In this document: positions 1,927-58,034 of the stretch, piece after piece | Numbering within the stretch: the stretch's first letter is position 1 | Layout of the letters: each line of letters begins with the position of its first letter | DNA from: Patescibacteria group bacterium | Lineage (GTDB): Bacteria > Patescibacteriota > Minisyncoccia > Phycocordibacterales > UBA918 | Assembly (NCBI GenBank): GCA_019745315.1 | Contig: JAIETH010000002.1 | Location: forward strand, 32,654 to 96,653 | Reading direction: 5' to 3' | Length of the DNA stretch: 64,000 nt | Position numbers and translations under genes: made by a program | The notes under the pieces: model-generated | Told to the model about the DNA's origin: nothing | Seen by the model: the letters and a program-made list of their open reading frames with translations, nothing else | Databases searched by the model: none

Positions 1927-3385
1927 ATTGGAATTAATCCACGACCAGCTTCCGCTAGCCGTGCCTTGTTACGACTTAGTCCCTGTCATCGAGTTTACCG
2001 TAAGCCTACACGAGGTAGGATTTCGGGCACTCCCGACTCCCTTGACTTGACGGGCGGTGAGTACAAGGCTCGGGAACGTATTCACCCCGGCGTTGCTGAT
2101 CCGGGATTACTAGCGATTCCGACTTCATGAGGGCGAGTTGCAGCCCTCAATCCGAACTGGGGGTACTTTTATAAGGATTTGCTCCACCTTACGGTATTGC
2201 GTCCTGTTGTGGTACCCATTGTATCACGAGTGCAGCCCAAGGCATCAAGGGACATGCGGACCTGGCGTCATCCTCACCTTCCTCCCCCGTGAGGGGGCAG
2301 TCTCGCCTGACAAATATAACAGGCAACGAGGGTTGCGTTCGTTTCCCCACTTAAGGGAACAACTCAAGCCACGAACTGACGACGGCCATGCATCACCTGC
2401 CATACACCCTCGAAGGCTTCCCCGGTTTCTCGGGGCGTGCAGTATGGTTTCTAGCCTTGGTAAGGTTCCTCGCTTAGCGACGAATTAAGCCTCATGATCC
2501 ACCGCTTGTGCGAGCCCCCGTCTATTCCTTTGAGTTTTAATCTTGCGATCGTACTTCCCAGGCGGCCCGCTTAACGCGTTAGCTTCGCCTCAGAGAGGGT
2601 CGATACTCCCTAAAGCTAGCGGGCAACGTTTAGGGCGTGGACTACCGGGGTATCTAATCCCGTTCGCTACCCACGCTTTCGTGTTTCAGTGTCAGGAATA
2701 CGCCAGTAAAGTGCCTTCGCATTTGGTGTTCCCCATGATATCAACGGATTTCACCCCTACACCATGAGTTCCCTTTACCTCTCGTATCCTCGAGCGTAGC
2801 CGTTTCCTCCGCGATTACCGGGTTAAGCCCGGTGATTTAACGGAAGACTAACTACGCCACCTACACACCCTTTACGCCCAGTAAATCCGGATAATGCTCG
2901 GGGCCTCTGTATTACCGCTCCTGCTGGCACAGAGTTAGGAGCCCCTTATTCATGAGGTAACGTCAAAATTTCCTCCCTCATAAAAGATGTTTACGTCCCT
3001 AAGGACTTCATCCATCACGCGGCGTCGCTCCGTCAGGCTTGCGCCCATTGCGGAAGATTCTCGACTGCAGCCTCCCGTAGGAGTATGGCCCGTGTCGCAG
3101 TGCCATCGGTGGGGGTCAGCCTCTCAGCTCCCCTACGCGTCGTAGCCTTGGTGAGCCATTACCTCACCAACTAGCTGATACGTCGCAGGCTGTTCCCAGA
3201 GCGATAAATCTTTACTCTCTCGAGACCATCACGTATTATCTCGCCTTTCGACGAGTTATTCGTGACTCTGGGGTACATACCTACGTGTTACTACCTCGTC
3301 TGCCATGGGTCTAAACCCATTCGACTTGCATGCCTCATCCACGCCGCCAGCATTCATCCTGAGCTAGGATCAAACTCTAATTTAA
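1927..3385 (-). rRNA. rrs: 16S ribosomal RNA, about 1.46 kb, with no large insertion.
   Basis: On the reverse complement there are universal landmarks: a 5' end ...AGAGTTTGATCCTAGCTCAG at about 3359-3378; a 515F-region variant TTACCGCTCCTGCTGGCAC; a 1492R-region GCCTTGTTACGACTT; and helix 45 with a GGAA tetraloop. The 3' tail reads GGAUUAAUUCCAAU rather than GGAUCACCUCCUUA. Confidence 0.9.
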
Positions 3386-8021: not shown

Positions 8022-8930
8022 TTATGCTACTTCTTCTCGTTTCTGCCATCGCTCAATCATCACAAGGAGGGGCGCAGCAAGACAGATAGAAGAGTATGTT
8101 CCTGCAATCATACCGACCATGAGGGTAAGAGAGAAATTTTTAGTAGGCTCTGGACCAAGTATGTAGAGCGATACGAGCATGATGATAACAGTGATCGAAG
8201 TATTAAGAGAACGAGTAAGTGTCTGCATAATACTTCGTCCCACAACCTCTCCAAAACCTTCTTTAATATTTTTATCAATATTGATTTTGAGATTTTCTCG
8301 AACGCGGTCAAATACTACAATAGTATCGTTTACCGAAATACCAAGAATAGTAAGAAGTGCCACAATAAAGAGTGAATCTACTTCTGCGCCATACATGTAC
8401 CCAAGGTACGCAAAGAGTCCTGCGGGGATCAAAATATCATGAAGTAGTGTCACGATAATAACGATTCCATACTTCCACGAGGCGACGGGCTTTGAAACAT
8501 GACGAAATGCAAATGCGATAAAAGCAATGATGCTCAAAACTACCAAGGCAATTGCCCACCACGCCTTTTTCAAGAGCTCTGCACCAATTGAAGGACCGAT
8601 GGAGTTAAACTGCACCTCGCTTGCTTTACCGAGCGTCTGGAGAGATGACATAAGCTCAATCTTTTCCTCAGGCAACAGCTCGCGTTGACGCAAGATATAA
8701 TCCTTTTCCCCTGAAGGCTGTACGAGCACTTCACCAAGCTCGAGAGGCCTAACTACCGCATGTACTGCCTCAGCGTCTGGACGCACTTCTTCATATGAAA
8801 CCTGCAATAAGGAACCTCCCTTAAGATCAATACCTGGCTTAAGCCCCCACACAAAAAGAGCAACTAACGACGCCACCGAGAGGAGGACTGGAATTGCAAA
8901 GAAATATTTTTGATATCGAATAAAAAGCAT
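8022..8930 (-). CDS. secF: Protein-export membrane protein SecF.
   Basis: Shows the SecF topology and the LKPGIDLKGGSLL motif, and is adjacent to secD. Confidence 0.8.
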   Translation of the reverse strand: MLFIRYQKYFFAIPVLLSVASLVALFVWGLKPGIDLKGGSLLQVSYEEVRPDAEAVHAVVRPLELGEVLVQPSGEKDYILRQRELLPEEKIELMSSLQTLGKASEVQFNSIGPSIGAELLKKAWWAIALVVLSIIAFIAFAFRHVSKPVASWKYGIVIIVTLLHDILIPAGLFAYLGYMYGAEVDSLFIVALLTILGISVNDTIVVFDRVRENLKINIDKNIKEGFGEVVGRSIMQTLTRSLNTSITVIIMLVSLYILGPEPTKNFSLTLMVGMIAGTYSSICLAAPLLVMIERWQKREEVA

Positions 8931-8939
8931 AGGAAGTGA

Positions 8940-10355
8940 TTAGAATCTAAAACCTGAACCCATAAAGAAACGTCCAACTTTTTTAACAGCATCAATGCGC
9001 AGTGCCAAAAGCAGTGTGCGTGAAATACTGATAGCTGAAAGCATTGAGACAAATACTCCCACCGATAGCACGAGCGCAAATCCTTTAATAAGAGACGTGC
9101 CAAACCAAAACAGAATAATTCCTGCTATAAGATGAGCAATGTTTGAATCGCGAATCGCAAGCCACGCACGAGAGAATCCTTCTTGTATTGCGTCTTCCGT
9201 ATCTTTCCCTGCTTTAAGCTCCTCCTTCATACGCTCCGCAATCAATACGTTTGCATCAACTGCAAGACCCACAGAAAGAATGAATCCTGCAATACCCGCA
9301 GCCGTCAAAACCACTGGCATAAGCTTAAACAGTGCCAACATTATCGCAACATACACAAGCAATGCGAGAACAGCCACCAAGCCCGGCAAACGATACCAGA
9401 GTATAAGGAAGATAGAGAGGATAATGAAACCAACTACTCCTGCTCGCACTCCCGCCTTAAACGCATCTTCTCCGAGAGACGCACCAATTGTTTGTGTACT
9501 CAAAAGTTCGATAGGTACCGGCAGTGCACCAAAGTTAAGATTGCGAACAAGTTCGCGACCCTCGTCAGGAGTGAAGTCTCCGGTAATCACCGCAGAACCT
9601 CCCGATATTGCCTCGTTGATCATTGGCTCTGACATCACAACGCCATCAAGAAAGATAGCGAGCCTCTTGCCCACATTATCCCGCGTGATTTGTTCAAAAA
9701 GCCGCGCTCCTTCTTCGTCAAAAGTAATTGCAACAACAGGCGCATTCGCAAGCTGTCCTTGAGAACCACTTCCAAACTCAAGCGTCGCGCGCTCGAGATA
9801 CCGCCCAGTAAGACCTGTAGCAATATACAACTCACCAGCTGCTTCTGTGGCAAGTATTTCTTCGATAACGACACCCTCTTCACCTTGTGTGCTTATAGCA
9901 TTTTGTATCGTAGCAAATGCCTCCTCATTGACGAGCTTAAACTCAAGTGATGGCGTCTGTCCAATTTGTCGAATTGCTTCATTTACATCAGTCACTCCAG
10001 GCAATTCAACCACCAAGCGTTGCATACGCTCACCCGCTACCGCACTCGATTGTTCAACCTGCACAATTGGTTCAGACACACCGAATACATTTGTGCGTCT
10101 CTCAATAACATCACGGAGAGATGCCATTGCATTTTGTACCTCCTCCGGAGCAATCGCCGAAACGTCAGCCTTGTATACAAGATGACTTCCCCCTGCAAGA
10201 TCAAGGCCGAGCTTAAATGGGAATTTCGAATCTGGATTAACGGTCGTTGTATACACAAAGTACGCAATGATTCCTGCGAACACACAGACCACAAAAGCAC
10301 GAAATATTCGTACAGATGCACTTACAGGAACGACGACTTGTTCAGGCTTTTTCAT
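8940..10355 (-). CDS. secD: Protein-export membrane protein SecD.
   Basis: Motif LGLDLAGGSHLVY, a periplasmic domain and a C-terminal 6-TM bundle. Confidence 0.8.
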   Translation of the reverse strand: MKKPEQVVVPVSASVRIFRAFVVCVFAGIIAYFVYTTTVNPDSKFPFKLGLDLAGGSHLVYKADVSAIAPEEVQNAMASLRDVIERRTNVFGVSEPIVQVEQSSAVAGERMQRLVVELPGVTDVNEAIRQIGQTPSLEFKLVNEEAFATIQNAISTQGEEGVVIEEILATEAAGELYIATGLTGRYLERATLEFGSGSQGQLANAPVVAITFDEEGARLFEQITRDNVGKRLAIFLDGVVMSEPMINEAISGGSAVITGDFTPDEGRELVRNLNFGALPVPIELLSTQTIGASLGEDAFKAGVRAGVVGFIILSIFLILWYRLPGLVAVLALLVYVAIMLALFKLMPVVLTAAGIAGFILSVGLAVDANVLIAERMKEELKAGKDTEDAIQEGFSRAWLAIRDSNIAHLIAGIILFWFGTSLIKGFALVLSVGVFVSMLSAISISRTLLLALRIDAVKKVGRFFMGSGFRF

Positions 10356-17839: not shown

Positions 17840-17948
17840 ATCTGGCGGCTACCTACTCTCCCTCTTGCGAAGTACCATCGGCGCTAGAAGGCTTAACTTC
17901 CGTGTTCGGAATGAGAACGGGTGTGACCCTTCCGCCAAACCACCAGAT
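17840..17948 (-). rRNA. rrf: 5S ribosomal RNA, 109 nt.
   Basis: The reverse complement AUCUGGUGGUUUGGCGGAAGGGUCACACCCGUUCUCAUUCCGAACACGGAAGUUAAGCCUUCUAGCGCCGAUGGUACUUCGCAAGAGGGAGAGUAGGUAGCCGCCAGAU aligns to the 5S consensus, including the CCGAAC and GUAC loop E regions and helix I. Confidence 0.85.
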
Positions 17949-18034: not shown

Positions 18035-18293
18035 TTAAATATTTAATCTGTTGGAATTTAATATCAAGTGTAGTATTTTTGCAACTCAAAATCAAAACCT
18101 AAGCAACTCTATGAATGCATAGTATTCCTTGTCTTGAATCCTGAAATCGAAATTTGCATGACGATGTTCAGCATTCCTTACAGGAAATACATTCTATTAG
18201 TACACCTCGGCTCCGCATATTTCTATGCTTCCACCTGGTGCCTATCAACCTGATAATCTCTCAGGGAATTTAATGATTCCTCATCTTAGAACT

Positions 18294-18326
<33 letters not shown>

Positions 18327-18452
18327 ATTCCGAACGTAGCTACAGGGCAATGCCGCTGGCGCGACAGCCCTCAGACCAGAGGTTCGTTCATCCCGGTCCT
18401 CTCGTACTAGGGACAAATTTCCTCAAGAATCGACGCCTGCAGTAGATAGGAG

Positions 18453-18486
<34 letters not shown>

Positions 18487-18561
18487 GCGTAACTTTTTAA
18501 TTGGCGAACAGCCAAACCCTTGGGACCTGCTCCAGCCCCAGGATAAGTTGAGCCGACATCG

Positions 18562-18927
18562 CTGTCATTTTTCCCACATTACTGTGAGGATCGGACTATA
18601 TCTTCATCCATACGTAATTTCGCATGGAGATCGGCGTGTAGTCTCTACGGGATCATGTACCAATATGCTTTCGGAATGAAATTAATCTGAAATTGATACT
18701 GACTTCCCACGGTATTGTCCACCTTCTCATTCTCTCTTACGAGAGCGGCTGATGTGGAGTTCACCGTTATAGCCAATTTGTTTTTGTACGGCATTACTGC
18801 CATAGGCACCCCGATGTATTTCGTTTGTTCTATATGGACTTTCGTCCATACAATCTTCGCTCACTCGGTCATGCAAAAGTAAACTTTTGCGCGACGCTCA
18901 TTCGCTTGATTGTAACTACATAAGTTA
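18562..18927 (-). ncRNA. Group I intron of 366 nt in 23S domain V, inserted after the U equivalent to E. coli U2500. It carries no ORF.
   Basis: Exon continuity GGCACCU|...|CGAUGUCGG. The 5' exon ends in U and the intron ends in G. The core sequences GUAGAGACUACACGCC and AAGAUAUAGUCCGAUCC resemble group I P7/J8-7. Confidence 0.65.
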
Positions 18928-19495
18928 AGGTGCCGAACCGTGCCGTCGCTATGGACGCTTGGGCACGACTAGCCTGTTATCCCCAGGGTAACTTTTATCG
19001 GGTAATCTCCGGCCGCATCTAACGCGTACCATCGGTTCACTATGCTCCGCTTTCGCGTCTGCTTGGCATCTACGCCTTACAGTCAAGCTGGCTTATGCCA
19101 TTACACTATCGGCACGGTTTCCATTCGCGCCTAGCCAACCTTGAGACCCCTCCGTTACTTTTTAGGAGGGTAGCGCCCCACTAAAACTGCCTACCACGCA
19201 CTGTCTCAGCATGATTTTTTCATGCTGGTTAGAAACTGCCCGAGTAAAGAATGGTATTTCACTGACGAGTCCACACTTCCCAAAAGAAATGCTTCAACCT
19301 CTCCCATCTATTCTACGCATCACAAGAACAGCCTCAATACGAAGCTACAGTAAAGCTCCTGGGGTCTTTTCGTCTAACTGCAGGTACCCGGCATCTTCAC
19401 CGGGATTGTATTTTCACCGAGCAAGTCCTTGAGACAGTTCCCCAGTCATTACGCCATTCGTGCACGTCGGAACTTACCCGACAAGGAATTGCGCT

Positions 19496-19722
19496 CTTCT
19501 ATTCCTCAAAGAAGGACTCTGTCTTCGTCCGTCCGCATAGGCGACTAAGGACGCGTGACATCTGGTCTCTTTGTGGTCACGTTTTGACTAAGCGTACATC
19601 TCTGTACGCAAGGTAGCTTTTTGAATGATCATCTACGTATCTCTCATAGATGAATTTGCGTCCATTTACCAATCCATAATCGTTCCAGTCATTCGGTTCA
19701 CTTCATTACTGAAATGAACCGA
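19496..19722 (-). ncRNA. Insertion of 227 nt in 23S domain IV at the L1931-equivalent site. It is a candidate small group I intron or intervening sequence.
   Basis: Helix 69 is intact (AGCGAUAACUAUAAUCGUU). The exon reads CUAAGGU|...|AGCGCAAUUCC. The insert begins with U-exon, ends with G, and contains CCUUAG, which is complementary to the 5' exon. Confidence 0.5.
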
Positions 19723-22106
19723 ACCTTAGAACGATTATAGTTATCGCTGACATTGACCGGGGCTTACATAGCCCAGCAGTACAGATTGCTCCATACCACC
19801 TTCCATGTTTAACCTTCCGGCATTGGTCAGGCGTCACCCCCTATACATCCACTTACGTGTTCGCAGGGAGCTGTGTTTTTGGTAAACAGTTGCCAGGGAA
19901 TCTTTCGCTGCGGCCTCTCACCTTGCGGCGAGGAGGCAGGCCTTATCCCGAAGTTACGGCCGCTTTTTTGCCGAGTTCCTTAAGGACCTCTCACTCGTTC
20001 GCCTTGGTCTACTCGACCTGATCACCTGTGTCGGTTTGCGGTACGGAACCGTTTTGTGTAACGTAGAAGTTTTTCTTGGAAGCGTGCTCCCACAATTGAC
20101 GTGTCCGAAGACACATCTTCAGGTTCAACTCGGATGTGCATTAAAGCAGAAGTGCGGATTTACCTACACCTCACCCTCGAAGCACCAACGAAAATCCAGT
20201 AATTCGTTTGAAGTACAACCCTCCGTCCCTCCATAGAAACAAAACGGTGTTATGGAATATTAACCATATGTCCATCGCCTCCCCCGTTCGGGATCGGCTT
20301 AGGCCCGACTAACCCTTGGCTGATCACCATCGCCAAGGAAACCTTGATCTTTCGGCGGGAGGGGCTCTCACCCTCCTTGCGGTTACTTGTGCCGGCATTC
20401 TCACTTCCATACGCTCCAAGTCGGGTCTCCCCTCCTCTTCATCGCAGAATGGAACGCTCTCCTACCACTTACTCTGTACGAATACAGAGCAAATCCGCAG
20501 TTTCGGTACTATGCTTGAGCCCCGATCATCTTCGGCGCAGAAACTCTCGACGAGTGAGCTGTTACGCTATCTTTAAAGGATGGCTGCTTCTAAGCCAACC
20601 TCCTCGCTGTCAATGAATTTCCACCTCCTCAAGTTGCACTGAGCATAGATTTAGGGACCTTAACTGGCGATCTGGGCTGTTTCCCTTTTGACCAATGGAG
20701 CTTATCCCCCATAGTCTAACTGCCGTGTTTTTAATCCTTGGTATTCGGAGTTTGATAGGTCCCACGAGATTTCTCCCTGTTGGGACCTTCCAGTGCTCTA
20801 CCCCCAAGGGGAACACACGACGCCAACCCAAAAGCTGTTTCGGAGAGAACCAGCTATTACGGAATTCGATTAGCTTTTCACTCCTTACCACAAGTCATCC
20901 GATGGTTTTGTACGGCCAACCGGTTCGGGCCTCCCCTTATCTTTCGATAAGGTTCACCCTGCTCATGGCAAGCTCATCCCGCTTCGGGTCGCATTCTATC
21001 CCTTATAATTTCGCGCTATTAACACTCGCTTTCGCTCTGCCTCCGGGGGTCGTCCCCTTAGACGAAGGAATACAATGCACTCGCCGGCTCATTCTTCAAT
21101 AGGCACGCGGTCACCAGACTTACGTCCAGCTCCCACTCTTTGTAGGCATACGGTTTCAGATCTATTTCACTGTCCTCACCGGACTGTTTTTCACCTTTCC
21201 CTCACGGTACTCGTTCACTATCGGTCTCTTAAAATATTTAGCCTTAGGAGTTAGTGCTCCCAGATTCATTCGAGCTATTCATGTCTCGAACTACTCAGGA
21301 ACGACAACAAGAAAGTAGTATTGATTTCGTATACGGGACTATTACCCACTGGGGTCACGCTTTCCAGCGTGTTCTACTACCAATACTTTTTGTAACTTTC
21401 CTCAACTAAATGAAGTTGCCGCCCTACAACCCCGACTATGTAAACACAATCGGTTTGGGCTGATCCCGTTTCGCTCGCCGCTACTAAGGGAATCGCAAGT
21501 GTCTTCTTCCTGACTATAATGGCTCCGCCAGTTGGCAGAATTTAGCCAGAAAGAAAACACCTTGTATTGCTTTCTTTTCCTCCAGGTACTGAGATGTTTC
21601 ACTTCCCTGGGTATGCAAATGTCTTACGACAAATCTCTATCGTAGATAGAGGGGTTTCCCCATTCGGAGATCCTCGGTTATAACGATTGCTTGGCATCTT
21701 ACCGAGGCTTATCGCAGCCATGCCACGTCCTTCTTCGCTTTTAAGAGCCTAGGCATCCACCGTACGCCCTTCATTCCTGTAAGGAATGCTAGACACCGTT
21801 TAAGGCACTTTCCATTCCATTACATGAATACTAAACACCGCTGTTTAGATTTTGATTTTTGTTGTTGTTCGCATGACACACACTCTGACGAAAAGACCCT
21901 CTTTAAAGACATGTGTGCACCATGCGTCACGTGTATGCAACAAAACATACACGATTGCTCGATACTTCCTACATGATATTAAATTTTCAACGAGCGAGTG
22001 TCCCGTATAAGGACTAAAAAAACCGCTTTGAGCGGAGAGAGAAACCCACAGAGAGTCCAACTTCCGCTTACAGGTTTTTATAGTTACTCATAGACACGTA
22101 GCCGCC

Positions 22107-45183: not shown

Positions 45184-48100
45184 TTATACCAAGGTCACTC
45201 GATATGTTCGTTGATCAAGAGTGAGGGCTTCTCCGTCAGAAGAATCAAAACGAATATCTGTAGCATTCACCGTACGTGCAATCATATCTCTATACTCTGC
45301 CACTATGCTCTGACCCTCTCCATCAGTGTCTACAACAAGAACAATACCGTCTTGTGGCGCGTACCCTGACTGCTTTCGTAATTCTTGAATATGGCGCATA
45401 AGATCTCGCACCTCCCCTTCACGCGCGAGTTCTGGTGTGATCTCTGAATCAAGGGCAACCTCGCTTAATAGGGACTGGTCTTCTACGATCTGTTTTACAT
45501 TCACCTCTTCCTTGATCAATATGAGAAGATCTTCTGTATTTAAATACTCAGCACTCTTGATGCGAAGTGTTTGAAGAGGCTGACGAACTTTTACTCCCAC
45601 CTCATTACGAGCCTCAAGCGCCAAAGATACAACATCTCGTACTTTTTGCATTGCGCGCAAATCTTCTTCTTTTGGAGAAATTGAAATTGAAGGCCATGAT
45701 GCAAGGTGCACACTTATAGGATCAGCTTCTTCGCGCACAACTTGGAATAGGTGCTCAGCAAAAAACGGCATCGCCGGAGCCATCACAAGTGATAGCGTTT
45801 TAAGAATATAACGAAGCGTTGCAAGTGTTGCTCGTTGATCTTCCTCTCCCCCATACTTCAATCGCTCACGTGAGCGTCGCAAATACCACACCGAGAGATC
45901 GTCAATAAAGCCAGTAATTGGTCGCGTTGCTCGATCAAGCTCATACTCTTCCATACCGAGAGTTACATCCGCGACCACCTCTGACATCCGCATCAATATC
46001 CACGTATCAAGTACATGTGTTGAACCAAGCGCTTCTCCTGCTGGCACATCAGACTCTTTATACAACTCATAGAATGAAAGCACATTAGCCAAACGACCAA
46101 TGTTTTTGCGCCCAAGCTCAGCAAGACTTTTTTCAGAAAAGTTAAGATCTTCACCTCGAATGATTGGAGACGAGAGTAGATAAAAACGAAGTGTGTCTGC
46201 GCCATAGACATCAACAACATCCATGGGATCAGGATAGTTTTTTAGCTTCTTTGACATCTTGCGCCCGTCTTCAGCTAACACCAATCCGTTCACAATAACG
46301 TTCTTATATGGCGATCTTCCAAAAAGAGCTGTTCCAAGTACGATAAGAGAATAAAACCACCCACGAGTTTGATCTACTCCTTCCGCAATAAAATCAGCAG
46401 GATACCCTATTTCTTTCTCTGGGTTAAAACGATCAGTATTTTCAAATGGATAATGCTGTTCTCCATATGGCATCGAGCCCGATTCAAACCAACAGTCAAA
46501 TACATCTGGTACGCGTACGAGTGTTTCTCCATCAGTATCTAGAAGTTTAATTTCATCAATATACGGGCGGTGATAATCAAGTTCGTAATTTCGATTATGC
46601 GGCAATGGTACAAACTGAAGCTCTCGCACCTCTGCATTTGTAAAATACTCGCCTGAGTTACGCATCAGTTCGGTCTTATCTATATCTGCACCGAGAGCCA
46701 CCGACTCAAGTCCAAAGAGAGGCCCTGCGTGACTAATGATAAGGATATTCTTGCCCTTAAACTTCGCATCAATATCATAGAGAAATTCACCCACCCTTTT
46801 CTGTACATCCCGACGATTTTCAAGATTCCCAATTTTTGTGAGATATCGTGATTTCCAATCAGGAAAAAGTGCACTGTGTTCTGCCCATGTCTTCCCTTCA
46901 AAATCAGGACCGATCTGCATTTCACCAATTCGATCGTCTTCAATCATCGCTGAATCAGGAAGGTTAAAATGTTTCTGCAAAATTTCTGCAGTTTGTTTTG
47001 TGCGCTCGTAACCAGAGTGGATGATGAGATCGATTTTTTTATCTTTGTACTCTCCCGCAACCTTCTCTACCTGCTCTATCCCTTTTTGTGTCAAAGGATT
47101 GTGAGCCTCCTTTTTGGTACTTACTACGTCAGCCGCATTGCTTTCAGCTTCGCCGTGACGCATGAGGAAATACTGATTACCAGACTTTGGCACATGTGAC
47201 GCAAGCTCCTCGAGTGAGCCAAATACTTTATAGGTATTTGCTTTTTTGTTTTTCCATACCGGAAGCGGTGCTCCCCAATACCGCTGACGAGAGACCGCCC
47301 AATCACGTGCGCCCTCAAGCCAATTTCCAAAACGAGCTGAACCAATATGTTCTGGCACCCATCCAACTTTCGAATTTTCTTCTACGAGCTTATCTTTAAA
47401 ATCGGTAACCCGCACAAACCATGAAGACGTTGCATAGTTAAGAAGTGGTGTCTCACAACGCCAACAGTGCGGATAGCTGTGCACAATGTTTTCTTTTCCA
47501 AAAAGGCGTCCGCGCTCTTTAAGCATCTTTAAGATCAAAACATCTGCATCGGTATGAAGAATGCTCTTCTCAGAATCATCTTTCGGCTTCACAGGGCGCC
47601 CAGAGAGATCAGTAATATGCGACATGAAGTTCCCTTCTGTATCTACATGATGTACTACTGGAATTTCTTCCTTTTGTGCAAGAACAAGATCTTCTTCTCC
47701 GTATGCAGGAGCCAAATGCACTGCGCCTGTTCCGCTTTCAAGTGTTACATAATCAGCATGATAAATTTTCCATGCATTTGTTTTATTCTCTATATCGCGA
47801 TCAGCATAATATTCAAATGGAGGTATGTATGATTTTCCAACTAACTCTGAACCCTTAAACTCTTCCACTATTGAATAGTCTTCAGTCCCGAGCTGAGAAA
47901 TTCGCTCTTTCGCAAGAATAACAAAATCTTTTTTCCCTTCTAGAGAAACTTCAACCTTTACATACTCGTGGTCATTATGAACGGCAGCTGCCATATTGCC
48001 TGGAAGCGTCCACGGTGTAGTTGTCCACACAAGAAGAGACGTATCAGTCACCTCGCGAGCCTCATCCAGAAGCGGAAGCTTCACAGTAACCGCAATATCT

Positions 48101-48735
48101 TTTATATCTTTATAGCCCTGGTTTACTTCAAAGTTTGAAAGTGTGGTGCCGCAACGGGGGCAGAAGTGCATGGACTTAAATCCTTCGTATACCAACCCTT
48201 TTTTATTAAGCTCAGAAAAAACCCACCACACACTTTCAGTGTATGACGCATCCATTGTCTTATAGTCATCGTCCATATCAGCCCAACGACCGAGGCGCGG
48301 AATGATACGCTTCCAATCATCCGCATACTCCATCACAGTATCAGCACATGCTTGATTGAATTTCTCTACCCCAAGCTCTTCAATATCTCTTTTAGTAGCA
48401 AGTCCGAGCTTTTTCTCGATGATGTTTTCAAGAGGGAGTCCGTGACAGTCCCATCCCCACTTACGAGTGACATGATATCCGCGCATCGTTCTATAGCGTG
48501 GAATGGTGTCCTTAATAGTTCCTGCAAGAATATGTCCGTGATGCGGAAGCCCAGTTGCAAACGGTGGCCCGTCATAAAAAACGTATTCACCAAGCGGAGA
48601 TTCTTTTTCTAATGACTTTTCAAAAATCTTTTCTGTATTCCAAAACGCAAGAACAGCTTCCTCACGCAAAGCGACATCACTCACCTTTTTTTCTGTTGTA
48701 GTATCTGGTGTTTTTTCCATAACAAATCCCCCCAC
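45184..48735 (-). CDS. ileS: Isoleucine--tRNA ligase (type 2) with an inserted histidine-phosphatase (PGAM-like) domain.
   Basis: Shows HIGH (PHHGHIL), the editing domain, WCISR-like RDWAVSRQRYWG, KMSKK and the C-terminal domains. About 195 extra residues with LMRHGEAESN and ILIISHAGPL motifs are inserted between PLPVW and YHRPYIDE. The likely true start is MEKTP at 48720. Confidence 0.85.
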   Translation of the reverse strand: MGGFVMEKTPDTTTEKKVSDVALREEAVLAFWNTEKIFEKSLEKESPLGEYVFYDGPPFATGLPHHGHILAGTIKDTIPRYRTMRGYHVTRKWGWDCHGLPLENIIEKKLGLATKRDIEELGVEKFNQACADTVMEYADDWKRIIPRLGRWADMDDDYKTMDASYTESVWWVFSELNKKGLVYEGFKSMHFCPRCGTTLSNFEVNQGYKDIKDIAVTVKLPLLDEAREVTDTSLLVWTTTPWTLPGNMAAAVHNDHEYVKVEVSLEGKKDFVILAKERISQLGTEDYSIVEEFKGSELVGKSYIPPFEYYADRDIENKTNAWKIYHADYVTLESGTGAVHLAPAYGEEDLVLAQKEEIPVVHHVDTEGNFMSHITDLSGRPVKPKDDSEKSILHTDADVLILKMLKERGRLFGKENIVHSYPHCWRCETPLLNYATSSWFVRVTDFKDKLVEENSKVGWVPEHIGSARFGNWLEGARDWAVSRQRYWGAPLPVWKNKKANTYKVFGSLEELASHVPKSGNQYFLMRHGEAESNAADVVSTKKEAHNPLTQKGIEQVEKVAGEYKDKKIDLIIHSGYERTKQTAEILQKHFNLPDSAMIEDDRIGEMQIGPDFEGKTWAEHSALFPDWKSRYLTKIGNLENRRDVQKRVGEFLYDIDAKFKGKNILIISHAGPLFGLESVALGADIDKTELMRNSGEYFTNAEVRELQFVPLPHNRNYELDYHRPYIDEIKLLDTDGETLVRVPDVFDCWFESGSMPYGEQHYPFENTDRFNPEKEIGYPADFIAEGVDQTRGWFYSLIVLGTALFGRSPYKNVIVNGLVLAEDGRKMSKKLKNYPDPMDVVDVYGADTLRFYLLSSPIIRGEDLNFSEKSLAELGRKNIGRLANVLSFYELYKESDVPAGEALGSTHVLDTWILMRMSEVVADVTLGMEEYELDRATRPITGFIDDLSVWYLRRSRERLKYGGEEDQRATLATLRYILKTLSLVMAPAMPFFAEHLFQVVREEADPISVHLASWPSISISPKEEDLRAMQKVRDVVSLALEARNEVGVKVRQPLQTLRIKSAEYLNTEDLLILIKEEVNVKQIVEDQSLLSEVALDSEITPELAREGEVRDLMRHIQELRKQSGYAPQDGIVLVVDTDGEGQSIVAEYRDMIARTVNATDIRFDSSDGEALTLDQRTYRVTLV

Positions 48736-48788: not shown

Positions 48789-49877
48789 TTATTTCACGAG
48801 GGTTATAAGCGGACGCTTTGTGGCTTCTGTCACAATGGTAAACGTCTCGCTCCCAAGTATCTGCCTCCGCTCAGTCTCTACAATACAGCGCCACAAACCA
48901 TCATGAACATTGGTTACATACGTATATCCTCTATATCCTCGCTCATTTCCTCCTGAAATAGTAAATGGGATTCTGCTTTGAGTGACCCACTCGCCACTCG
49001 TCTCATTAAAGTACTGCCAGTGATGAAATATTCTGAGTGAAAATGAGGTCGGCGCAAATACAGAGGTGAAGCAGTGAACCTCATCCCCCTTTGTGTATCG
49101 ATACGTTGTGTCAGCATCGCGCCAAAACTTATACCACGGAGCTTCCTCGTATGTAAGACGATAACTTCCGTCTTCAATTTTTTCAACCTGATGATAGATG
49201 TCTATATTTTTAAGTGAAAGCGGAATAGGCGGAATAATGTTTCCAAAATATAAAAAATTAAGAACAGCAAAAATGATGCCGAGGGAAAATATAATATTGC
49301 GGATATGAAGCTCAATAAAATTTGGGACAATAAGACGTAAGAGTCGTAGGTACAAAAATATAACAATGAGCGCCAATGTCCCGCTTCCTACAAAAACCCA
49401 TGGCCCCATTTTCTTAACAAGAACTGGTACAAACAAAATACAGTATGAAAAAATACCTAAGAAAAATATTGAAAGATTGAGGAGCAACCTCTCCGCTCGA
49501 TCACGCACCATCTCATTCCCTATCATCACACCAAGAACAAGTACGAGAAATGGCCACGAAACCGACCATGAGCCACTTTGGCTATAAAAAACAAGTGTTC
49601 CTGAAAGAAGTGAACCGAAACTAAATTGCACCAAAAGTGGCGCGTACCGCAATACAAAGGCTCGCATTTTTTCTCCTAACTTATCTGCAGTAGCGGCATA
49701 GAGAAGCGCTAAATTAGTGCCGGCATTCAATATATGCGCGAGCAAAATTCCCATTGCAAAAAACTGATCGACGCGTCCGAGCGTTAAAATATCGACAACA
49801 AAACCTCCAACAAAGGCAATGGTGAGCCACCACTGTTTTAGTTTTTGCGCTTTATCGTAATACGAACGAAATACCAT
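48789..49877 (-). CDS. Multi-pass membrane protein with a C-terminal soluble domain; function unknown.
   Basis: About 8 TM helices and a 130-aa C-terminal domain. Confidence 0.5.
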   Translation of the reverse strand: MVFRSYYDKAQKLKQWWLTIAFVGGFVVDILTLGRVDQFFAMGILLAHILNAGTNLALLYAATADKLGEKMRAFVLRYAPLLVQFSFGSLLSGTLVFYSQSGSWSVSWPFLVLVLGVMIGNEMVRDRAERLLLNLSIFFLGIFSYCILFVPVLVKKMGPWVFVGSGTLALIVIFLYLRLLRLIVPNFIELHIRNIIFSLGIIFAVLNFLYFGNIIPPIPLSLKNIDIYHQVEKIEDGSYRLTYEEAPWYKFWRDADTTYRYTKGDEVHCFTSVFAPTSFSLRIFHHWQYFNETSGEWVTQSRIPFTISGGNERGYRGYTYVTNVHDGLWRCIVETERRQILGSETFTIVTEATKRPLITLVK

Positions 49878-52018: not shown

Positions 52019-53530
52019 TCACGCAAAACCAGGGAAAAAGTCCGTACGAATATTGGAGGTTGGCACCCCACTCTTCTGTAGTATCCCTTCAAATGCAGTA
52101 ACCATCCCATGAGAACCTGAGATATAAAATACTCTTTCTTTCAGATCTCCGACCTCTCGTCTCAAGATATCTTCTGTCAGAAATCCCTTATACCCCGACC
52201 ACTGCGAAGAAGCTTCATTTACCACATACACCATCCGAATACCGAGCCCTCTCGCCTCCTCAAAAAGCTCCTTGTATGCAATTTCGTCCTCGCTTCTATT
52301 TGCATAGAAAAATACAATATCCCGGCGCTCTCCTGTATCTAAAAGACACTTGACCATGCTTCGAAATGGAGTGACTCCAATTCCTCCTGCAATAAAGACG
52401 AGTTTTTTCTGTGTATCGGCTGGTAGGACAAAATCCCCCGCTAAACTTGATGCCGCAACAATATCACCCTGCCCTAATTCCATAAGCGCTTTTTTAAAGC
52501 TACTTGATCTGGTCTCCTCAATACGCACTCCGAGTCGAATATCGTCTTCTGTTGGAGACGATGCAATAGTGAAGTAACGGCGCATACCACGCTGATCCGC
52601 ATTTTTATGAGGGAGTGTCCATTCGAAATATTGCCCGGGCGAAAAAGATACTTTTTCGTTGGTAGAAAATACAAACTCAAAAAGATTTTTAGCAAGCTTT
52701 GTTTTTTCTTTTAAAAGTAATTTTAATCGATACTTTGGACTTACAGCATAGGCATATATGTTCCCCACAAAGAGCGCAATTTCAGGAGAAGAATAGAGCG
52801 TCCCAAAAGAAAACTGAGAACCAAAGAGAAGTCCGACCAGTGCTCCATACACAATCTGATGCGTACGTCCCGGAGGTGTCGTCAAAGGCTCAGTCAACAT
52901 GATACTCGCAAAAAACAGCGCTGGCCCTGAAAGGAAAAAAGTAAGTGCTATATCTGAAAGTGTAAATTCGTTATATATACCAAATGTAATACTGGTAACG
53001 AGAGCTGTCCCTAAAAATACCGCCGGAAGCGCGTACCTTCGAAGCTTGCGTACCACCAAAAGTCCAAATGCGAGAACTACGGGAAACAATGCCGCACTCC
53101 CAATCCACCATATTGCTTCGCCACTTCCAAAAAGAGCAAGAGCAACTAATCCAAATACCGCAGGATTAATGAGATGCTTATGCTTATATGCCACCACATA
53201 TTTTGATGCAATGGCGAGAGCTGCTGCTGCCGCAAGTAACATATATTCAGTAGCGGTTTGAGCCGGAAATAAAATAAAGAACAGTATAAATGCAGTTATA
53301 AACGAAGACTCGCTATTGCTTGGAGCATGAAATAATCTCGAACATACTTCGTTAACAATCACTGACACGACAAGAAGTACGATGAGGGAGGTGACAAGTG
53401 GTACCAGTCCAAACGAAAGAAAGCCTAACGCCGACAAAACGCAGGCATGGACGAGAAGTGCTACAAGACCATACAACACCAGTCGGTACATGGTGATCCT
53501 GTTAAGAAAAGCATCAATGAATGTAATCAT
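52019..53530 (-). CDS. Polytopic membrane protein fused to a C-terminal ferredoxin-NADP-reductase-like FAD/NAD(P)-binding domain.
   Basis: About 8 N-terminal TM helices. The C-terminus carries RRYFTIAS (RxYS FAD motif) and GGIGVTP (NAD(P) motif). Confidence 0.6.
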   Translation of the reverse strand: MITFIDAFLNRITMYRLVLYGLVALLVHACVLSALGFLSFGLVPLVTSLIVLLVVSVIVNEVCSRLFHAPSNSESSFITAFILFFILFPAQTATEYMLLAAAAALAIASKYVVAYKHKHLINPAVFGLVALALFGSGEAIWWIGSAALFPVVLAFGLLVVRKLRRYALPAVFLGTALVTSITFGIYNEFTLSDIALTFFLSGPALFFASIMLTEPLTTPPGRTHQIVYGALVGLLFGSQFSFGTLYSSPEIALFVGNIYAYAVSPKYRLKLLLKEKTKLAKNLFEFVFSTNEKVSFSPGQYFEWTLPHKNADQRGMRRYFTIASSPTEDDIRLGVRIEETRSSSFKKALMELGQGDIVAASSLAGDFVLPADTQKKLVFIAGGIGVTPFRSMVKCLLDTGERRDIVFFYANRSEDEIAYKELFEEARGLGIRMVYVVNEASSQWSGYKGFLTEDILRREVGDLKERVFYISGSHGMVTAFEGILQKSGVPTSNIRTDFFPGFA

Positions 53531-53574
53531 TGGAGTATTCTACCAGATCCTTTTTGTTCCATTAAAATACAGCA

Positions 53575-54456
53575 TCATCCTGCGCTAAAAAATTCTCCAG
53601 GAAATTGTGGTGAGTATCTCATGTTCATACCATCCTCCAGAAGGGCCCATTCGAAAGAAAAATGTTGACTCAGTGTCTCGGGAGAGACAAAAAATAATGC
53701 CGTGGTGAGCATATCTGCAAGAAATGTTGTGTCAGCAACAACCCACACAGCTACAATGTGTTTTGGAGAAAGGAGTAATACAGGGTCAATAATATGGTGA
53801 AAGTCTCCCCATGACCTTCGCGATCCAGCTGAACCGCAGATACTTTTGTTTACAATATGGGCTACACCCACCACCTCGGTGAGATTAAGAGGGTTTTCTA
53901 GCCCTACCTTGAGAGGTGTTGATTCACTAGAGCGCACTCGTATATCACCCCCGGCGTCAACCACATATGACGCAACGCCATAATCCTCGATCACCGCACT
54001 AACCAAATCTATGAGATGTCCTTTTCCAGCCGCACCAACATCAATCATAGTGGGTCTGTGAACGGTAAGCACGCTGTCTTTATACGAAAGAACTTCATCC
54101 CATAGATATGCAGGAGTTAACGGTTCTTTTTGTGTAAGAGAATACTCAGCATCGTAGCCCGCTGCCACAAGCACGTCCCCTATTAAAGGAGTGACCTTAC
54201 CTTCTGTGATGTCATATATTTTTTTATACAACGAAAACAACTCTTCTGAATCCTGAGGAAGTACGTAACTACCCGCCTCTTTTGAAGCATGAGTAACAAT
54301 AGAGTCAGGCCGAAAACGAGAGTATGCTCGATCGTATGCACTAATACGAGCACAAATTTTTTCTAATAAAGAATCTTCGTGCTCTACGGAAAGGCTGTCG
54401 CGTATATCAATACGCCACTTCGTTCCTATCGCATCAAAGGCGAATGATGCTGCCAT
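53575..54456 (-). CDS. apbE: FAD:protein FMN transferase (ApbE family).
   Basis: ApbE-like length and motifs (DAIGTKWRIDI, LIDLVSAVIEDYGV...VDAGGDIRV). Confidence 0.7.
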   Translation of the reverse strand: MAASFAFDAIGTKWRIDIRDSLSVEHEDSLLEKICARISAYDRAYSRFRPDSIVTHASKEAGSYVLPQDSEELFSLYKKIYDITEGKVTPLIGDVLVAAGYDAEYSLTQKEPLTPAYLWDEVLSYKDSVLTVHRPTMIDVGAAGKGHLIDLVSAVIEDYGVASYVVDAGGDIRVRSSESTPLKVGLENPLNLTEVVGVAHIVNKSICGSAGSRRSWGDFHHIIDPVLLLSPKHIVAVWVVADTTFLADMLTTALFFVSPETLSQHFSFEWALLEDGMNMRYSPQFPGEFFSAG

Positions 54457-54461
54457 ACAGC

Positions 54462-55013
54462 TTACGCTTTTGCGTCTGCTTGGATTTTCAATACTGCATC
54501 GTTAAACCCTTTTGGTGTAAGAGACGATCCAGAAACCTTATCAAGAGAAACTTCAGAGAGCTTTTTCCCTACAACCTGTACTCCAAAGCCAGCAACAAAC
54601 TGTGTCTGAAACTTCTGAGACGCTGCATTCGTTGCCAACACCTCACCTGTCGCTGCAACGATTACATCATCCTTAATAGTAAGAGTAATACCAACTGTTT
54701 CTTTTCCAGCAGGAGATGTATACGCACCCTGTGTCGTATACATACCGTCCTTAAACACAGACGCCTTTACAGTAGCTGTTTCAACCTGCTCTTTGGTAAC
54801 AGGTGTCGGTGTCGGCTGTGGACTGGTTGGAGCTGTAGAATCATTTTCTTTTGTAGAAGTGGTTGGAGTCGAGGTCGATGCTGTAATAGGAGCATCGACC
54901 TTTTTAAAGTATGCAAAGCCACCCACTGCAACAATCAGAGCTGCGGCGAGCGCCAGACCAAAAAACTTTGTATTCGAAGGAGTACCTGATACTGATGTAT
55001 TTTTTTCATCCAT
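54462..55013 (-). CDS. Membrane-anchored FMN-binding domain protein, a likely ApbE flavinylation substrate.
   Basis: N-terminal TM, a Thr/Pro-rich linker, and an FMN_bind-like domain with a DKVSGSSLT flavinylation-type motif. Confidence 0.55.
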   Translation of the reverse strand: MDEKNTSVSGTPSNTKFFGLALAAALIVAVGGFAYFKKVDAPITASTSTPTTSTKENDSTAPTSPQPTPTPVTKEQVETATVKASVFKDGMYTTQGAYTSPAGKETVGITLTIKDDVIVAATGEVLATNAASQKFQTQFVAGFGVQVVGKKLSEVSLDKVSGSSLTPKGFNDAVLKIQADAKA

Positions 55014-55092
55014 ATATTTATATTGTTATTACAATGCCTGTTTCATCTTCATTTTTAATACGCCCTATCACCAGCAAAATTTCACAGACAAA

Positions 55093-55296
55093 CTATATCA
55101 GACCCTCGAGAGATGCGGTATAGCTACTGAGAAATGCGGGAAGCGCAAAGACAAGGCCTATCGCTGGCAATACTACGAGAGCCACTGTTACCCACATAAC
55201 AACAAGAAAGTACTTTCGTGTTTTTTCAACAGACTCATAGATGGCCTCTATTTTTGCTTCCTGTGCTTTTAGTCTCTCTAAGATTTCATTTTCCAT
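55093..55296 (-). CDS. Small membrane protein of 67 aa.
   Basis: An ORF with a coiled N-terminus and one TM helix. Confidence 0.3.
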   Translation of the reverse strand: MENEILERLKAQEAKIEAIYESVEKTRKYFLVVMWVTVALVVLPAIGLVFALPAFLSSYTASLEGLI

Positions 55297-56046: not shown

Positions 56047-56940
56047 ATGAAGCCAATGAAACCCTACACAGAGCGAACTCCTGACGAACAGTACAAAAAT
56101 CTTCTCCGAAGCATTCTCGAAAAAGGCACCCGTGTAGAAAGTCAGCAGGGTCCTGACGCACTCACCTTCATAGGACCAACCCCACTTCATTTCAAATTTG
56201 AAAATGGTTTTCCCATGATCACTGAGCGGAGCGTAAAAGGGTTTTGGAAACAAGCTATTGGAGAAATTTGTGGCTTCATAAACGGAGCTCGAACACTCAC
56301 AGAACTTGAATCATTTGGATGTAATTTCTGGACACCGTGGGGCACTCCCGAAAAATGTGCGAAGCGCGGACTTGAAACAGGAGACCTTGGACCCGGCTCA
56401 TACGGAGCTGCTTTTCATGACTTCCCTACAAGTGAAGGCGTTCCATACAATCAATTTCAAAACATTATCGAGCAAATAAAAGAATTTCCTCATTTGCGCA
56501 CACACTTTATTTCTCCGTGGATTCCACAATATACAATTCGAGGCACTGGTAAACAGCAAAAAGTAGTGGTCTGTCCGTGTCACGGCTGGATTCATATTCG
56601 AATACTCAACAACAAGTTGACGCTCCACATGTTTCAGAGATCAGCCGACGTTCCCGTAGGTGTTCCTTCAAATATGATTCAGTACGCAGCATTAACCATG
56701 ATGATTGCGCAAGCAACAGGATTTGAGGCATACGAATATGTACACAGTTTTTCTGATGCGCATATTTATGTAGACCAAATACCTATGGTTGAAGAATTGA
56801 TTGCACGAGAAACAAAACCGTTCCCTACCGTAACATTAACAAATCCAACAAACGATCTTTTTGCATTCCGCAAAGATGATTTTGAACTTGCCGACTATAC
56901 TGCAGGAGAATCGATGCGAGGAATACCCGTCGCTGTATAA
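56047..56940 (+). CDS. thyA: Thymidylate synthase.
   Basis: ThyA signatures, including the PCH catalytic cysteine region. Confidence 0.85.
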   Translation: MKPMKPYTERTPDEQYKNLLRSILEKGTRVESQQGPDALTFIGPTPLHFKFENGFPMITERSVKGFWKQAIGEICGFINGARTLTELESFGCNFWTPWGTPEKCAKRGLETGDLGPGSYGAAFHDFPTSEGVPYNQFQNIIEQIKEFPHLRTHFISPWIPQYTIRGTGKQQKVVVCPCHGWIHIRILNNKLTLHMFQRSADVPVGVPSNMIQYAALTMMIAQATGFEAYEYVHSFSDAHIYVDQIPMVEELIARETKPFPTVTLTNPTNDLFAFRKDDFELADYTAGESMRGIPVAV

Positions 56941-56944
56941 AAAT

Positions 56945-57397
56945 ATGCCTCACGAATCTAAAGTTGGTCTTAACCACAGAAACGCTCGAACCGAGGAACA
57001 AAAAGCTCTCATGGCAAAGATAGAAGCTGACGGTGTATGTCCTTTTTGTGCAGAGCATTTTAAAAAATATCATCCCAAGCCCATTCTGCGAGAAACTGAC
57101 TATTGGTTTGTTACAACAAATATGAGTCCGTATGAAGGAACGCAGCATCATTTCCTGCTCGTATATAAGCCATTCCACGCAACCCTTCCCGAACAAGTTG
57201 TCAGAGAAGCACAAACAGATCTTTTTGCATCCATTGAATGGATAATGAAAACACACCACATTATGGGAGGATCTTTTTTTATGCGCTTCGGTGATATGAA
57301 ATACACCGGCAGCAGTGTGGAGCATCTTCATGCACACCTCATCGTAGGCGACGTTGATGCGCCAGACCATCAACCTGTAAAAGTACGTCTTGGCTAA
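56945..57397 (+). CDS. HIT-family protein with an N-terminal CPFC motif.
   Basis: Histidine triad HLHAHLI. The start was chosen at MPHESK. Confidence 0.55.
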   Translation: MPHESKVGLNHRNARTEEQKALMAKIEADGVCPFCAEHFKKYHPKPILRETDYWFVTTNMSPYEGTQHHFLLVYKPFHATLPEQVVREAQTDLFASIEWIMKTHHIMGGSFFMRFGDMKYTGSSVEHLHAHLIVGDVDAPDHQPVKVRLG

Positions 57398-57476
57398 ACC
57401 TTAACAGGTTTTTTAAAAGGTTGACTTTTTTTGTTTTTTATTGCACTCTCAATCTTGGATTCAAAAGGAGGACCCG

Positions 57477-58019
57477 ATGCCCGCATGTGACGCCCCCACC
57501 CTGCTCACCCCCGAACAACTGTTCTGCCTCTGCGGATGCCGCAGCTATAAGCAGTACTACGAGATGCGGAAAGGCTTCGAGTCTGGAGCTTGTGCTTTCT
57601 GCCAGATCGACAAGGGGCTCAACCAAGTGCTTTTCGAGAACGATTTTTGGCTGATCTGGGAGGTTCCCTCGCAATTTCTGCGTAAGGAACTTGCCCTCCA
57701 TCTGATGATCGTCCCGAAGCAACACGTTCGGTTCCCTTGGGAACTTCCTGCAGAAGCTACGCGCGCGAAGTACGCGTGCTGGGAGTGGATCGAGGAACAC
57801 TACGCTGACCGGATCGAGGGCGGCATAATTGCTACCCGCATTGGAGACATGCGGCTCAATGCCGGCACGGTGCCGCACATGCACACCAACGTGTATGTGC
57901 CGAAGGGTACCGCTGAATTTCGGATTCCTGTTTTTAAGGATCCGAGTGACGCCGCGGAGAACGCTCTGCGTGCCGCAGAATTTTCGACACGATACGAAGC
58001 AGGTGAAGTGCCCGCCTAA
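57477..58019 (+). CDS. HIT-like paralog of the preceding gene, encoded in a GC-rich cassette of about 57% GC.
   Basis: Shares the CAFC, RIGDM and PHMHTNV pattern with the 56945-57397 product. It has a perfect AGGAGG Shine-Dalgarno motif 5 nt upstream of its ATG and its own downstream terminator. Confidence 0.55.
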   Translation: MPACDAPTLLTPEQLFCLCGCRSYKQYYEMRKGFESGACAFCQIDKGLNQVLFENDFWLIWEVPSQFLRKELALHLMIVPKQHVRFPWELPAEATRAKYACWEWIEEHYADRIEGGIIATRIGDMRLNAGTVPHMHTNVYVPKGTAEFRIPVFKDPSDAAENALRAAEFSTRYEAGEVPA

Positions 58020-58034
58020 CGCGAGGCACATCTG

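Follow-up and report, generated by a model that had tools for sequence, protein, structure and literature searches.

A predicted flavin module in a Patescibacteria contig

The DNA analysed here is a stretch of 64,000 nucleotides from a Patescibacteria group bacterium (contig JAIETH010000002.1, positions 32,654 to 96,653 of the forward strand), hereafter referred to as the window. Positions 52019–55296 of the window hold four open reading frames (ORFs), all on the minus strand and all confirmed in the ORF list. In 5′ to 3′ order they encode a 67-residue protein (p67), a protein predicted to bind flavin mononucleotide (FMN; the protein is referred to as FMNb), an ApbE-family flavin adenine dinucleotide (FAD):protein FMN transferase, and a fusion of an RnfD/NqrB-fold membrane domain with an FNR-type FAD/NAD(P)H domain. 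The last three form the module considered in this work. They are tightly packed, with the ApbE start codon only 5 nucleotides past the FMNb stop codon. An original prediction, made from the sequence of the window, had described three co-oriented adjacent genes with p67 upstream, and its coordinates and strand were borne out. A separate gene call on the identical ENA contig also agreed on the 183-, 293- and 503-residue products and placed MazG downstream.

Relatives of the module were collected by scanning GTDB at one genome per species, which gave at least 517 confirmed relatives among the first 600 pattern hits; the best 80 loci (L001–L080) were compared with the window. Two subtypes are distinguished below by the flavinylation-type motif of the FMN-binding partner, namely the canonical SGAT and the SGSS subtype, to which the window module belongs.

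FMN-binding protein

FMNb (54462–55013, minus; 183 residues) is an NqrC/RnfG-like protein and the predicted substrate of the neighbouring ApbE. It is 100% identical to the database entry [quoted passage not shown]. Sixteen polar residues precede a single transmembrane (TM) helix of the signal-anchor type at about residues 17–36 (54906–54965, minus), which has a hydropathy peak of 2.16 and is helical from residue 18 to 36 in the AlphaFold2 model. This is followed by a low-complexity Thr/Pro/Ser linker at about residues 40–83 (54765–54896, minus), modelled with no secondary structure at a predicted local distance difference test (pLDDT) score of about 50–65, the length of which varies strongly among homologues. 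The FMN_bind-type domain occupies about residues 85–183 (54465–54761, minus) and is modelled as a β-sheet with two helices (pLDDT 87–97). It carries the flavinylation-type motif D158-K-V-S-G-S-S164-L-T166 (54516–54542, minus), in which S161, G162, S163 and S164 are invariant or almost so in 53 FMNb homologues. Because SGS-S aligns to the SGA-T of canonical FMN_bind proteins, S164 is the predicted FMN acceptor.

The assignment of this protein to FMN_bind in the original prediction failed in Pfam and held at the level of the family. Searched alone, FMNb scored below the gathering threshold of PF04205 (13.0 bits versus 22, E 0.17) and received no direct NCBIfam assignment. Members of its family were found by jackhmmer in 71 of 81 sources (the 80 loci and the window), and 43 of 55 members match FMN_bind at E<0.001. 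Alignment of the SGSS and canonical subtypes by hhalign gave a probability of 99.8% (E 7e-28, 93 columns), with VSGS-S placed on VSGA-T, and the family profile matches the solved FMN-binding domain 8p2a at E 3.4e-20. A Foldseek search of the FMNb model against the PDB, with IscU as the top match and 8p2a, CPE2226, RnfG and NqrC as weak ones (E 0.01–0.2), is compatible with this assignment. FMNb is therefore identified as a predicted FMN_bind homologue through family-level profile evidence rather than through Pfam, and it is predicted to carry a covalent flavin.

ApbE flavin transferase

The ApbE gene (53575–54456, minus; 293 residues) bore out its original identification, with a match to PF02424 at E 4.9e-37 (128.3 bits versus a cut-off of 25.6) that spans profile positions 2–250 of 266. 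From residue 9 onward the protein aligns with the ApbE chain 4xgw, starting at residue 22 of the latter, and the GKG, GG, H-x-x-DP and AD-x-x-T motifs agree with both the 4xgw and 2o18 chains. GKG, DAGGD, HHIIDP and LADxLTT are conserved in 32 homologues, with G144-K145-G146, H221, D248 and T252 invariant. By these alignments the protein is classed as a full-length member of the ApbE family.

No signal peptide, membrane anchor or lipobox was found on the window ApbE, and an upstream stop codon leaves no space for a leader. No hydrophobic segment was present at the N terminus of any of the 68 cluster-linked ApbEs examined, even if translation was begun at the furthest upstream start, and the 120 best homologues, at 286–309 residues, consist of the domain only. 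A few ORFs of greater length proved to be artefacts of start choice. Those in L030, L061 and L080 are in-frame read-back with no hydrophobic stretch, and an apparent FMNb–ApbE fusion of 444 residues in L059 is spurious. In that locus (L059:4951–7017, Chloroflexia) the FMN-binding gene is duplicated in tandem and its second copy is frameshifted, which mimics a fusion when the most upstream start is chosen.

In characterised extracytosolic systems ApbE is secreted or lipidated, and cytoplasmic ApbEs are known only with cytoplasmic substrates (PMC12052999). The label "extracytoplasmic flavinylation" given by the original prediction is thus not secured. Since no member of the family has a leader on this enzyme, FMNb is probably flavinylated on the cytoplasmic side, ahead of export of its C-terminal part; the acceptor serine lies only 20 residues from the C terminus and so would be exported last. 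This order of events would make an FAD exporter unnecessary. To our knowledge, attachment of flavin by a cytoplasmic ApbE before export of the acceptor site is known for no ApbE system. The missing leader could alternatively be accounted for by an FMN domain located in the cytoplasm or by export of ApbE along a non-classical route. Either modification precedes export or the accepted topology is wrong, and the portions of Méheust et al. 2021 (PMC8238504) and Huang et al. 2024 (PMC10979944) drawn on here do not mention where ApbE resides in this kind of system.

Fusion protein

The fusion gene (52019–53530, minus; 503 residues) encodes a membrane domain at residues 1–265 (52736–53530, minus) and an FNR-type domain at residues 268–503 (52022–52729, minus), the latter NqrF-like without the 2Fe-2S domain. 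The membrane part matches NQR2_RnfD_RnfE (PF03116) with 35.7 bits against a cut-off of 27.7, and a profile of the domain searched against PDB sequences returned RnfD (8ahx_D) as its sole match, at E 0.0018 and over the C-terminal half. The C-terminal part matches NAD_binding_1 (PF00175) at E 1.4e-17, with FAD_binding_6 below threshold, and contains R318-Y-F-T321 and GGIGVTP (residues 382–388). The FNR-type domain and the motifs quoted in the original prediction, including GGIGVTP here and DKVSGSS in FMNb, are therefore present. Its count of eight TM helices was too low, as the AlphaFold2 model (pLDDT 84.6) has ten, followed by an FNR fold. The loops of the window protein contain 11 Lys and Arg residues on the FNR side and none on the opposite side (family mean 10.6 versus 0.7), a bias that shows a cytoplasmic N terminus, ten helices with both ends of the membrane domain in the cytoplasm, and a cytoplasmic FNR domain, as in RnfD and NqrB.

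About 70 positions are invariant over 28 fusion sequences, which are about 50% identical to the window protein. Among them are the polar or charged residues N72, S75, K110, H119, N122 and E214, located within the membrane or at its interface, and a tryptophan pair, W141-W142 (53105–53110, minus), in the outer loop between TM5 and TM6 (FGSGEAIWWIGS). The same 28 sequences contain no [ST]G[AS][ST] flavinylation motif, so that the site at which RnfD-type proteins are flavinylated is absent. They also have no invariant Cys and hence no Fe-S cluster. The N-terminal extensions of two long homologues (P0034 and P0075) are junk and not added domains.

Relationship to known flavin-based systems

The system termed NQR/RNF-like was defined by Méheust et al. 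(2021, eLife, PMC8238504) as a PF03116–PF00175 fusion in an ApbE-associated cluster and was reported "primarily" from Actinobacteria and the candidate phyla radiation (CPR), with 127 clusters first counted. Huang et al. (2024, PMC10979944) modelled the complex of Ktedonobacter racemifer by AlphaFold-multimer; the RnfD-like subunit is described as having lost its flavinylated Thr, the FMN of the NqrC/RnfG-like partner is proposed to fill the flavin site of the membrane subunit, and the model puts that partner outside. The window cluster corresponds to both descriptions on the points that were compared. One protein carries an N-terminal PF03116 and a C-terminal PF00175 domain, ApbE lies directly upstream of it with FMNb next, all within five genes, and the flavinylation site is present in FMNb and the conserved Thr motif absent from the RnfD-like part. 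On this sequence evidence the cluster is assigned to the NQR/RNF-like system as a divergent SGSS/long-ApbE subtype, which differs from the published system in an SGSS partner that falls below the Pfam FMN_bind threshold and in an ApbE of about 290 residues. Published hosts include CPR bacteria, Actinobacteria and Ktedonobacteria, and electrons have been proposed to flow one way only, from NAD(P)H outward. The original prediction was right that ApbE-associated modules had been catalogued; the host context that it singled out as of interest had already been published, in the same 2021 paper. Clusters of the SGSS type could escape the published pipeline, which accepts a cluster only if a gene recognised as ApbE, FMN_bind, DUF2271 or DUF3570 carries a signal peptide (PMC8238504).

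Canonical RNF and Na+-NQR share with the module a single-TM-anchored FMN_bind subunit flavinylated by ApbE, a modification that is predicted here. In RnfD/NqrB, about 8 Å separate a riboflavin on the cytoplasmic side from an FMN on the periplasmic side, the latter receiving its electrons from RnfG/NqrC (PMC12174285). The module differs in having no RnfA/E (NqrD/E), RnfB, RnfC (NqrA), Fe-S clusters or covalent FMN site in the membrane subunit; its FNR domain is fused directly to a membrane domain that is about 85–120 residues shorter than RnfD or NqrB, and flow is presumably reversed and one-way. No Rnf or Nqr family was detected among the module neighbours or in ten further window proteins that were scanned (eight of them polytopic).

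Extracellular electron transfer in Listeria (FmnB/PplA/Ndh2/EetAB/DmkA) resembles the module as proposed here in its ApbE-family enzyme, in a flavinylated FMN_bind protein placed outside a monoderm cell and in the export of NADH-derived electrons. It differs in its type II NADH dehydrogenase, dedicated quinone and EetA/EetB, in its use of an ECF transporter to export FAD and in the lipoprotein nature of FmnB and PplA (PMC9973259), whereas the window ApbE is leaderless. Ndh2-type, EetA/EetB, PplA and FmnB families were not found among the module neighbours or the scanned window proteins. On the window proteins scanned, neither canonical RNF/NQR nor the Listeria type, the kinds of system with which the original prediction proposed comparison, fits the module. 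NOX/FRE, MsrQ-like and PepSY-like proteins with a C-terminal PF00175 have bis-haem membrane domains, whereas the domain here has the RnfD/NqrB fold and is presumably all-flavin; it matches PF03116 and not the haem-binding PF01794, and only the FNR module is NOX-like. When the window ORFs were scanned for motifs, neither a CxxCH cytochrome nor a further protein with the flavinylation motif turned up. The cytoplasmic ApbE of Klebsiella pneumoniae likewise has no signal peptide and is encoded with its substrate, but that substrate is a soluble cytoplasmic fumarate reductase, whereas the one in the window has a signal-anchor and an envelope-type linker.

Distribution and subtypes

All of the best 80 matches cover the full length. 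By label, 46 are from CPR bacteria, 11 from Chloroflexota and 3 from Actinomycetota, and 20 are generic or doubtful. Ten loci (L006, L014, L021, L023, L024, L056, L061, L065, L066 and L071) are labelled "uncultured Gammaproteobacteria bacterium"; their module proteins are about 45–48% identical to the window protein, as are those of CPR-labelled loci, and the labels are suspected to be wrong. Carriers among the Chloroflexota include the cultivated Dictyobacter aurantiacus, and as Dictyobacter (L063) has the same three genes, the questions raised here are testable without growing a CPR organism. For the membrane domain alone, 368 representatives of 50%-identity clusters matched at E<=1e-30; almost all are about 500 residues long and therefore fused. 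The module is thus far more widespread than the 127 clusters first counted, in part because the SGSS carrier subtype escapes Pfam.

Most of the 80 loci keep the three genes on one strand in the order FMNb–ApbE–fusion, usually overlapping or nearly touching. SGAT substrates pair with an ApbE of about 247 residues in 44 loci and SGSS substrates with one of about 290 residues in at least 13, with one exception. The shorter form starts MKxTRxLMGMP and the longer FEAIGTxW, with a conserved C-terminal FPGEFF; neither has a leader. That the form of ApbE tracks the substrate motif shows clearly that ApbE and FMNb belong together.

Recurrent neighbours within about 7 kb of the module in the 80 loci were a MacB-like ABC ATPase (22 loci), a sensor kinase (15), an HlyD-like protein (12) and an ECF sigma factor (9), and a two-component system was also among them. 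MsrA was found near the module in 7 loci and MsrB in 6 (e.g. L037:10425–10985 and L009:12263–12643), and both look cytoplasmic. Clustering of the neighbourhoods over the 80 loci gave no conserved acceptor or partner gene.

Topology and covariation of the subtypes

A cytoplasmic FMN-binding domain is the placement that would contradict the original prediction, and the family as a whole points the other way. Net-positive N-terminal flanks, typically MKK followed by a hydrophobic stretch, were found in 54 of 57 canonical partners and a reversed arrangement in none, a charge pattern of the N-in signal-anchor type. The SGSS subtype decides the matter weakly, with 8 partners scored N-in, 3 reversed and 4 tied, and the flanks of the window FMNb have net charges of 0 (N side) and +1 (C side).

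Positions of the fusion protein were also ranked by how far they differ between SGAT-partnered and SGSS-partnered loci. Of the top 25 separating positions, the outer half of the membrane domain holds 17 and its inner half 6, which leaves 2 for the FNR domain. Clusters of them occur at residues 131–140, where the signal is strongest and which lie beside W141-W142, and at 201–202 and 237–240. Two control splits made within a subtype gave 6 and 10 outer-half positions, and 15 and 14 positions in the FNR domain. When only strictly subtype-specific positions were counted, four of five were on the outer face, with none in the cytoplasmic loops or the FNR domain. The subtype switch therefore covaries with outer-face residues of the membrane domain. 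This pattern is suggestive of FMNb docking opposite the FNR domain, and W141-W142 is a candidate site for docking or stacking of the FMN of FMNb. Neither the leaderless ApbE, the SGAT/SGSS subtypes nor the outer-face covariation was found in the portions of Méheust 2021 and Huang 2024 drawn on here.

Proposed electron path and alternatives

The three genes probably specify a two-subunit, flavin-only electron conduit, the NQR/RNF-like system, together with its own maturation enzyme. NAD(P)H, the substrate expected from the family, would reduce FAD in the cytoplasmic FNR domain, from which electrons would enter the membrane domain, probably via a non-covalent flavin at the RnfD/NqrB riboflavin site near the cytoplasmic face. 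They would next reach the FMN that ApbE is predicted to have attached covalently to Ser164 of FMNb. Both the covariation and the published AlphaFold-multimer model of the Ktedonobacter homologue suggest docking of the FMNb domain at the membrane domain's outer face, where it would supply the flavin that canonical RnfD and NqrB carry on a threonine of their own. Tethered by the flexible Thr/Pro linker, the FMN could then hand electrons to an extracytoplasmic acceptor. Such a path would correspond to the second half of NQR/RNF (RnfG/NqrC FMN, RnfD/NqrB FMN, riboflavin) run in reverse, and would need no haem, iron-sulfur clusters or quinone, which would suit a reduced genome. Transmembrane electron transfer by flavins, as the original prediction had read the genes, holds in this general sense, with NAD(P)H as the likely donor; what it had missed is the RnfD/NqrB-like domain (PF03116).

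Several observations weigh against the conduit as drawn. That the membrane domain holds a non-covalent flavin is an assumption, and the system is biochemically uncharacterised in every member. An ApbE without a leader in 68 of 68 clusters conflicts with the modification outside the cytoplasm seen in all characterised extracytosolic systems. The charge rule is weakly N-in for SGSS partners, with the window FMNb itself at 0 versus +1, and the structural match of its model to FMN_bind proteins is weak (E about 0.01, behind IscU). The covariation was set against two control partitions only, and the outer half is generally more variable (entropy 1.78 versus 1.27). Finally, the neighbourhoods of the 80 loci share no acceptor or partner.

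The leaderless enzyme is also the starting point for an inverted arrangement, in which FMNb is anchored N-out/C-in, is flavinylated by a cytoplasmic ApbE and shuttles electrons between the FAD of the FNR domain and the membrane domain, the RnfD-like part then passing them into or beyond the membrane or serving as a redox-gated channel. The absence of a leader from all 68 clusters and the 120 best homologues, the cytoplasmic ApbE/FMN_bind pairs known in Klebsiella pneumoniae (PMC12052999) and the KK or KKK that directly follows the TM helix in many SGSS partners, along with the flank charges of the window FMNb, would be in keeping with it. This arrangement is nevertheless quite unlikely given the N-in pattern of the canonical partners, the lipoprotein-like leader on the SGSS-type partner of L061, the long and variable Thr/Pro/Ser linkers that typify envelope proteins and the position of the subtype-discriminating fusion residues on the face opposite the FNR domain; RnfG and NqrC are, moreover, periplasmic (PMC12174285), and the published multimer model has the homologue outside (PMC10979944). 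If the outward topology is kept, the electrons might serve assimilatory metal reduction, with ferric iron or its chelates reduced for uptake, rather than redox balancing or respiration-like disposal. The ferrous-iron transporter VIT1 was reported in six NQR/RNF-like clusters, and iron assimilation was proposed for some (PMC8238504), but no iron transporter or siderophore gene occurs around the module in the window or among the recurrent neighbours of the 80 loci, and we consider this role unlikely.

An energy-conserving pump, in which the RnfD/NqrB ion path is kept and flow from NAD(P)H to an acceptor drives export of Na+ or H+, would make the module a minimal respiratory-type coupling site. 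RnfD/NqrB ranks among the leading candidates for carrying the ion path of RNF and NQR (PMC12174285), and the six polar and charged residues named above are invariant; coupling of this kind is still very unlikely, as the membrane domain is shortened and no RnfA/E (NqrD/E) was found among the neighbours or the polytopic membrane proteins scanned in the window, so that the moving RnfG/NqrC switch, which works between two stations, would have no second one. A bolder combination, in which electrons pass from NAD(P)H via three flavins to the outside while the RnfD/NqrB channel fold moves Na+ or H+ and a cytoplasmic ApbE flavinylates before export, is a long shot; if true, such a coupling site without haem, Fe-S clusters or quinone would represent minimal respiration-like energisation of the membrane for CPR bacteria. 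That the genes are a decaying, functionless remnant of an RNF/NQR operon is scarcely credible. Of the six canonical subunits just two are represented, and the site for RnfD-type flavinylation has been lost, yet the ORFs are intact, the fusion keeps its invariant positions, gene order is maintained across phyla, ApbE co-evolves with its substrate and retains its catalytic motifs, and hundreds of lineages carry the module. The remnant explanation is effectively refuted by this conservation.

CPR bacteria are reduced, mostly fermentative and often epibiotic. The conduit would be one of the few membrane redox devices in these organisms. Its novelty is small, as both the system and its occurrence in CPR bacteria have been in print since 2021 and the complex was modelled in 2024; what the present comparison adds is a leaderless ApbE, co-varying subtypes and cultivable hosts.

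Genomic surroundings

The p67 gene (55093–55296, minus), directly upstream of FMNb, encodes a charged N-terminal helix and a C-terminal TM helix. It matched no Pfam or NCBIfam family and had no homologue in the 80 related loci, and loci of its subtype hold no gene that consistently takes its position. The original prediction had listed it with the module; from these comparisons it is probably an orphan gene beside the module and not part of it. In the window the module is flanked by genes for MazG, SHMT, an alpha/beta hydrolase and ThyA, and p67, MazG and the hydrolase are found in the window only when compared with the 80 loci. A promoter and terminator scan returned fewer sites than in shuffled sequence and was uninformative.

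SecD and SecF, export-assisting Sec subunits that bear on export of the FMN carrier, are encoded at 8022–10355 (minus). Between the genes for isoleucyl-tRNA synthetase and glyA lies a gene for a polytopic membrane protein of 362 residues with a C-terminal DUF2914 domain (48789–49877, minus; E 4e-12). The isoleucyl-tRNA synthetase itself (45184–48735, minus; 1183 residues) has a His_Phos_1 domain (PF00300, E 1.7e-29) inserted at residues 523–692, which splits the class I catalytic domain. On the other side of the module, two adjacent plus-strand ORFs of about 180–190 residues were noted at 56861–57397 and 57441–58019, the first with a weak match to a HIT domain (E 1e-4) and the second with no family. 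The second is overlapped by an opposite-strand ORF of 197 residues (57438–58031), and the gene call is ambiguous there.

The ribosomal RNA genes of the window were also located. The 23S gene (18175–21783, minus) is 3609 nucleotides long compared with 2925 for the model, and a group I intron (RF00028, 63 bits) lies within it at 18572–18823. A 5S gene follows at 17840–17947. The 16S gene (1927–3385, minus) lies about 15 kb from the 23S and 5S genes, with protein genes between, so the rRNA genes are unlinked. Unlinked rRNA genes are typical of CPR genomes, and this layout, together with the intron in the 23S gene, is in line with the CPR-like host that had been guessed from the sequence.

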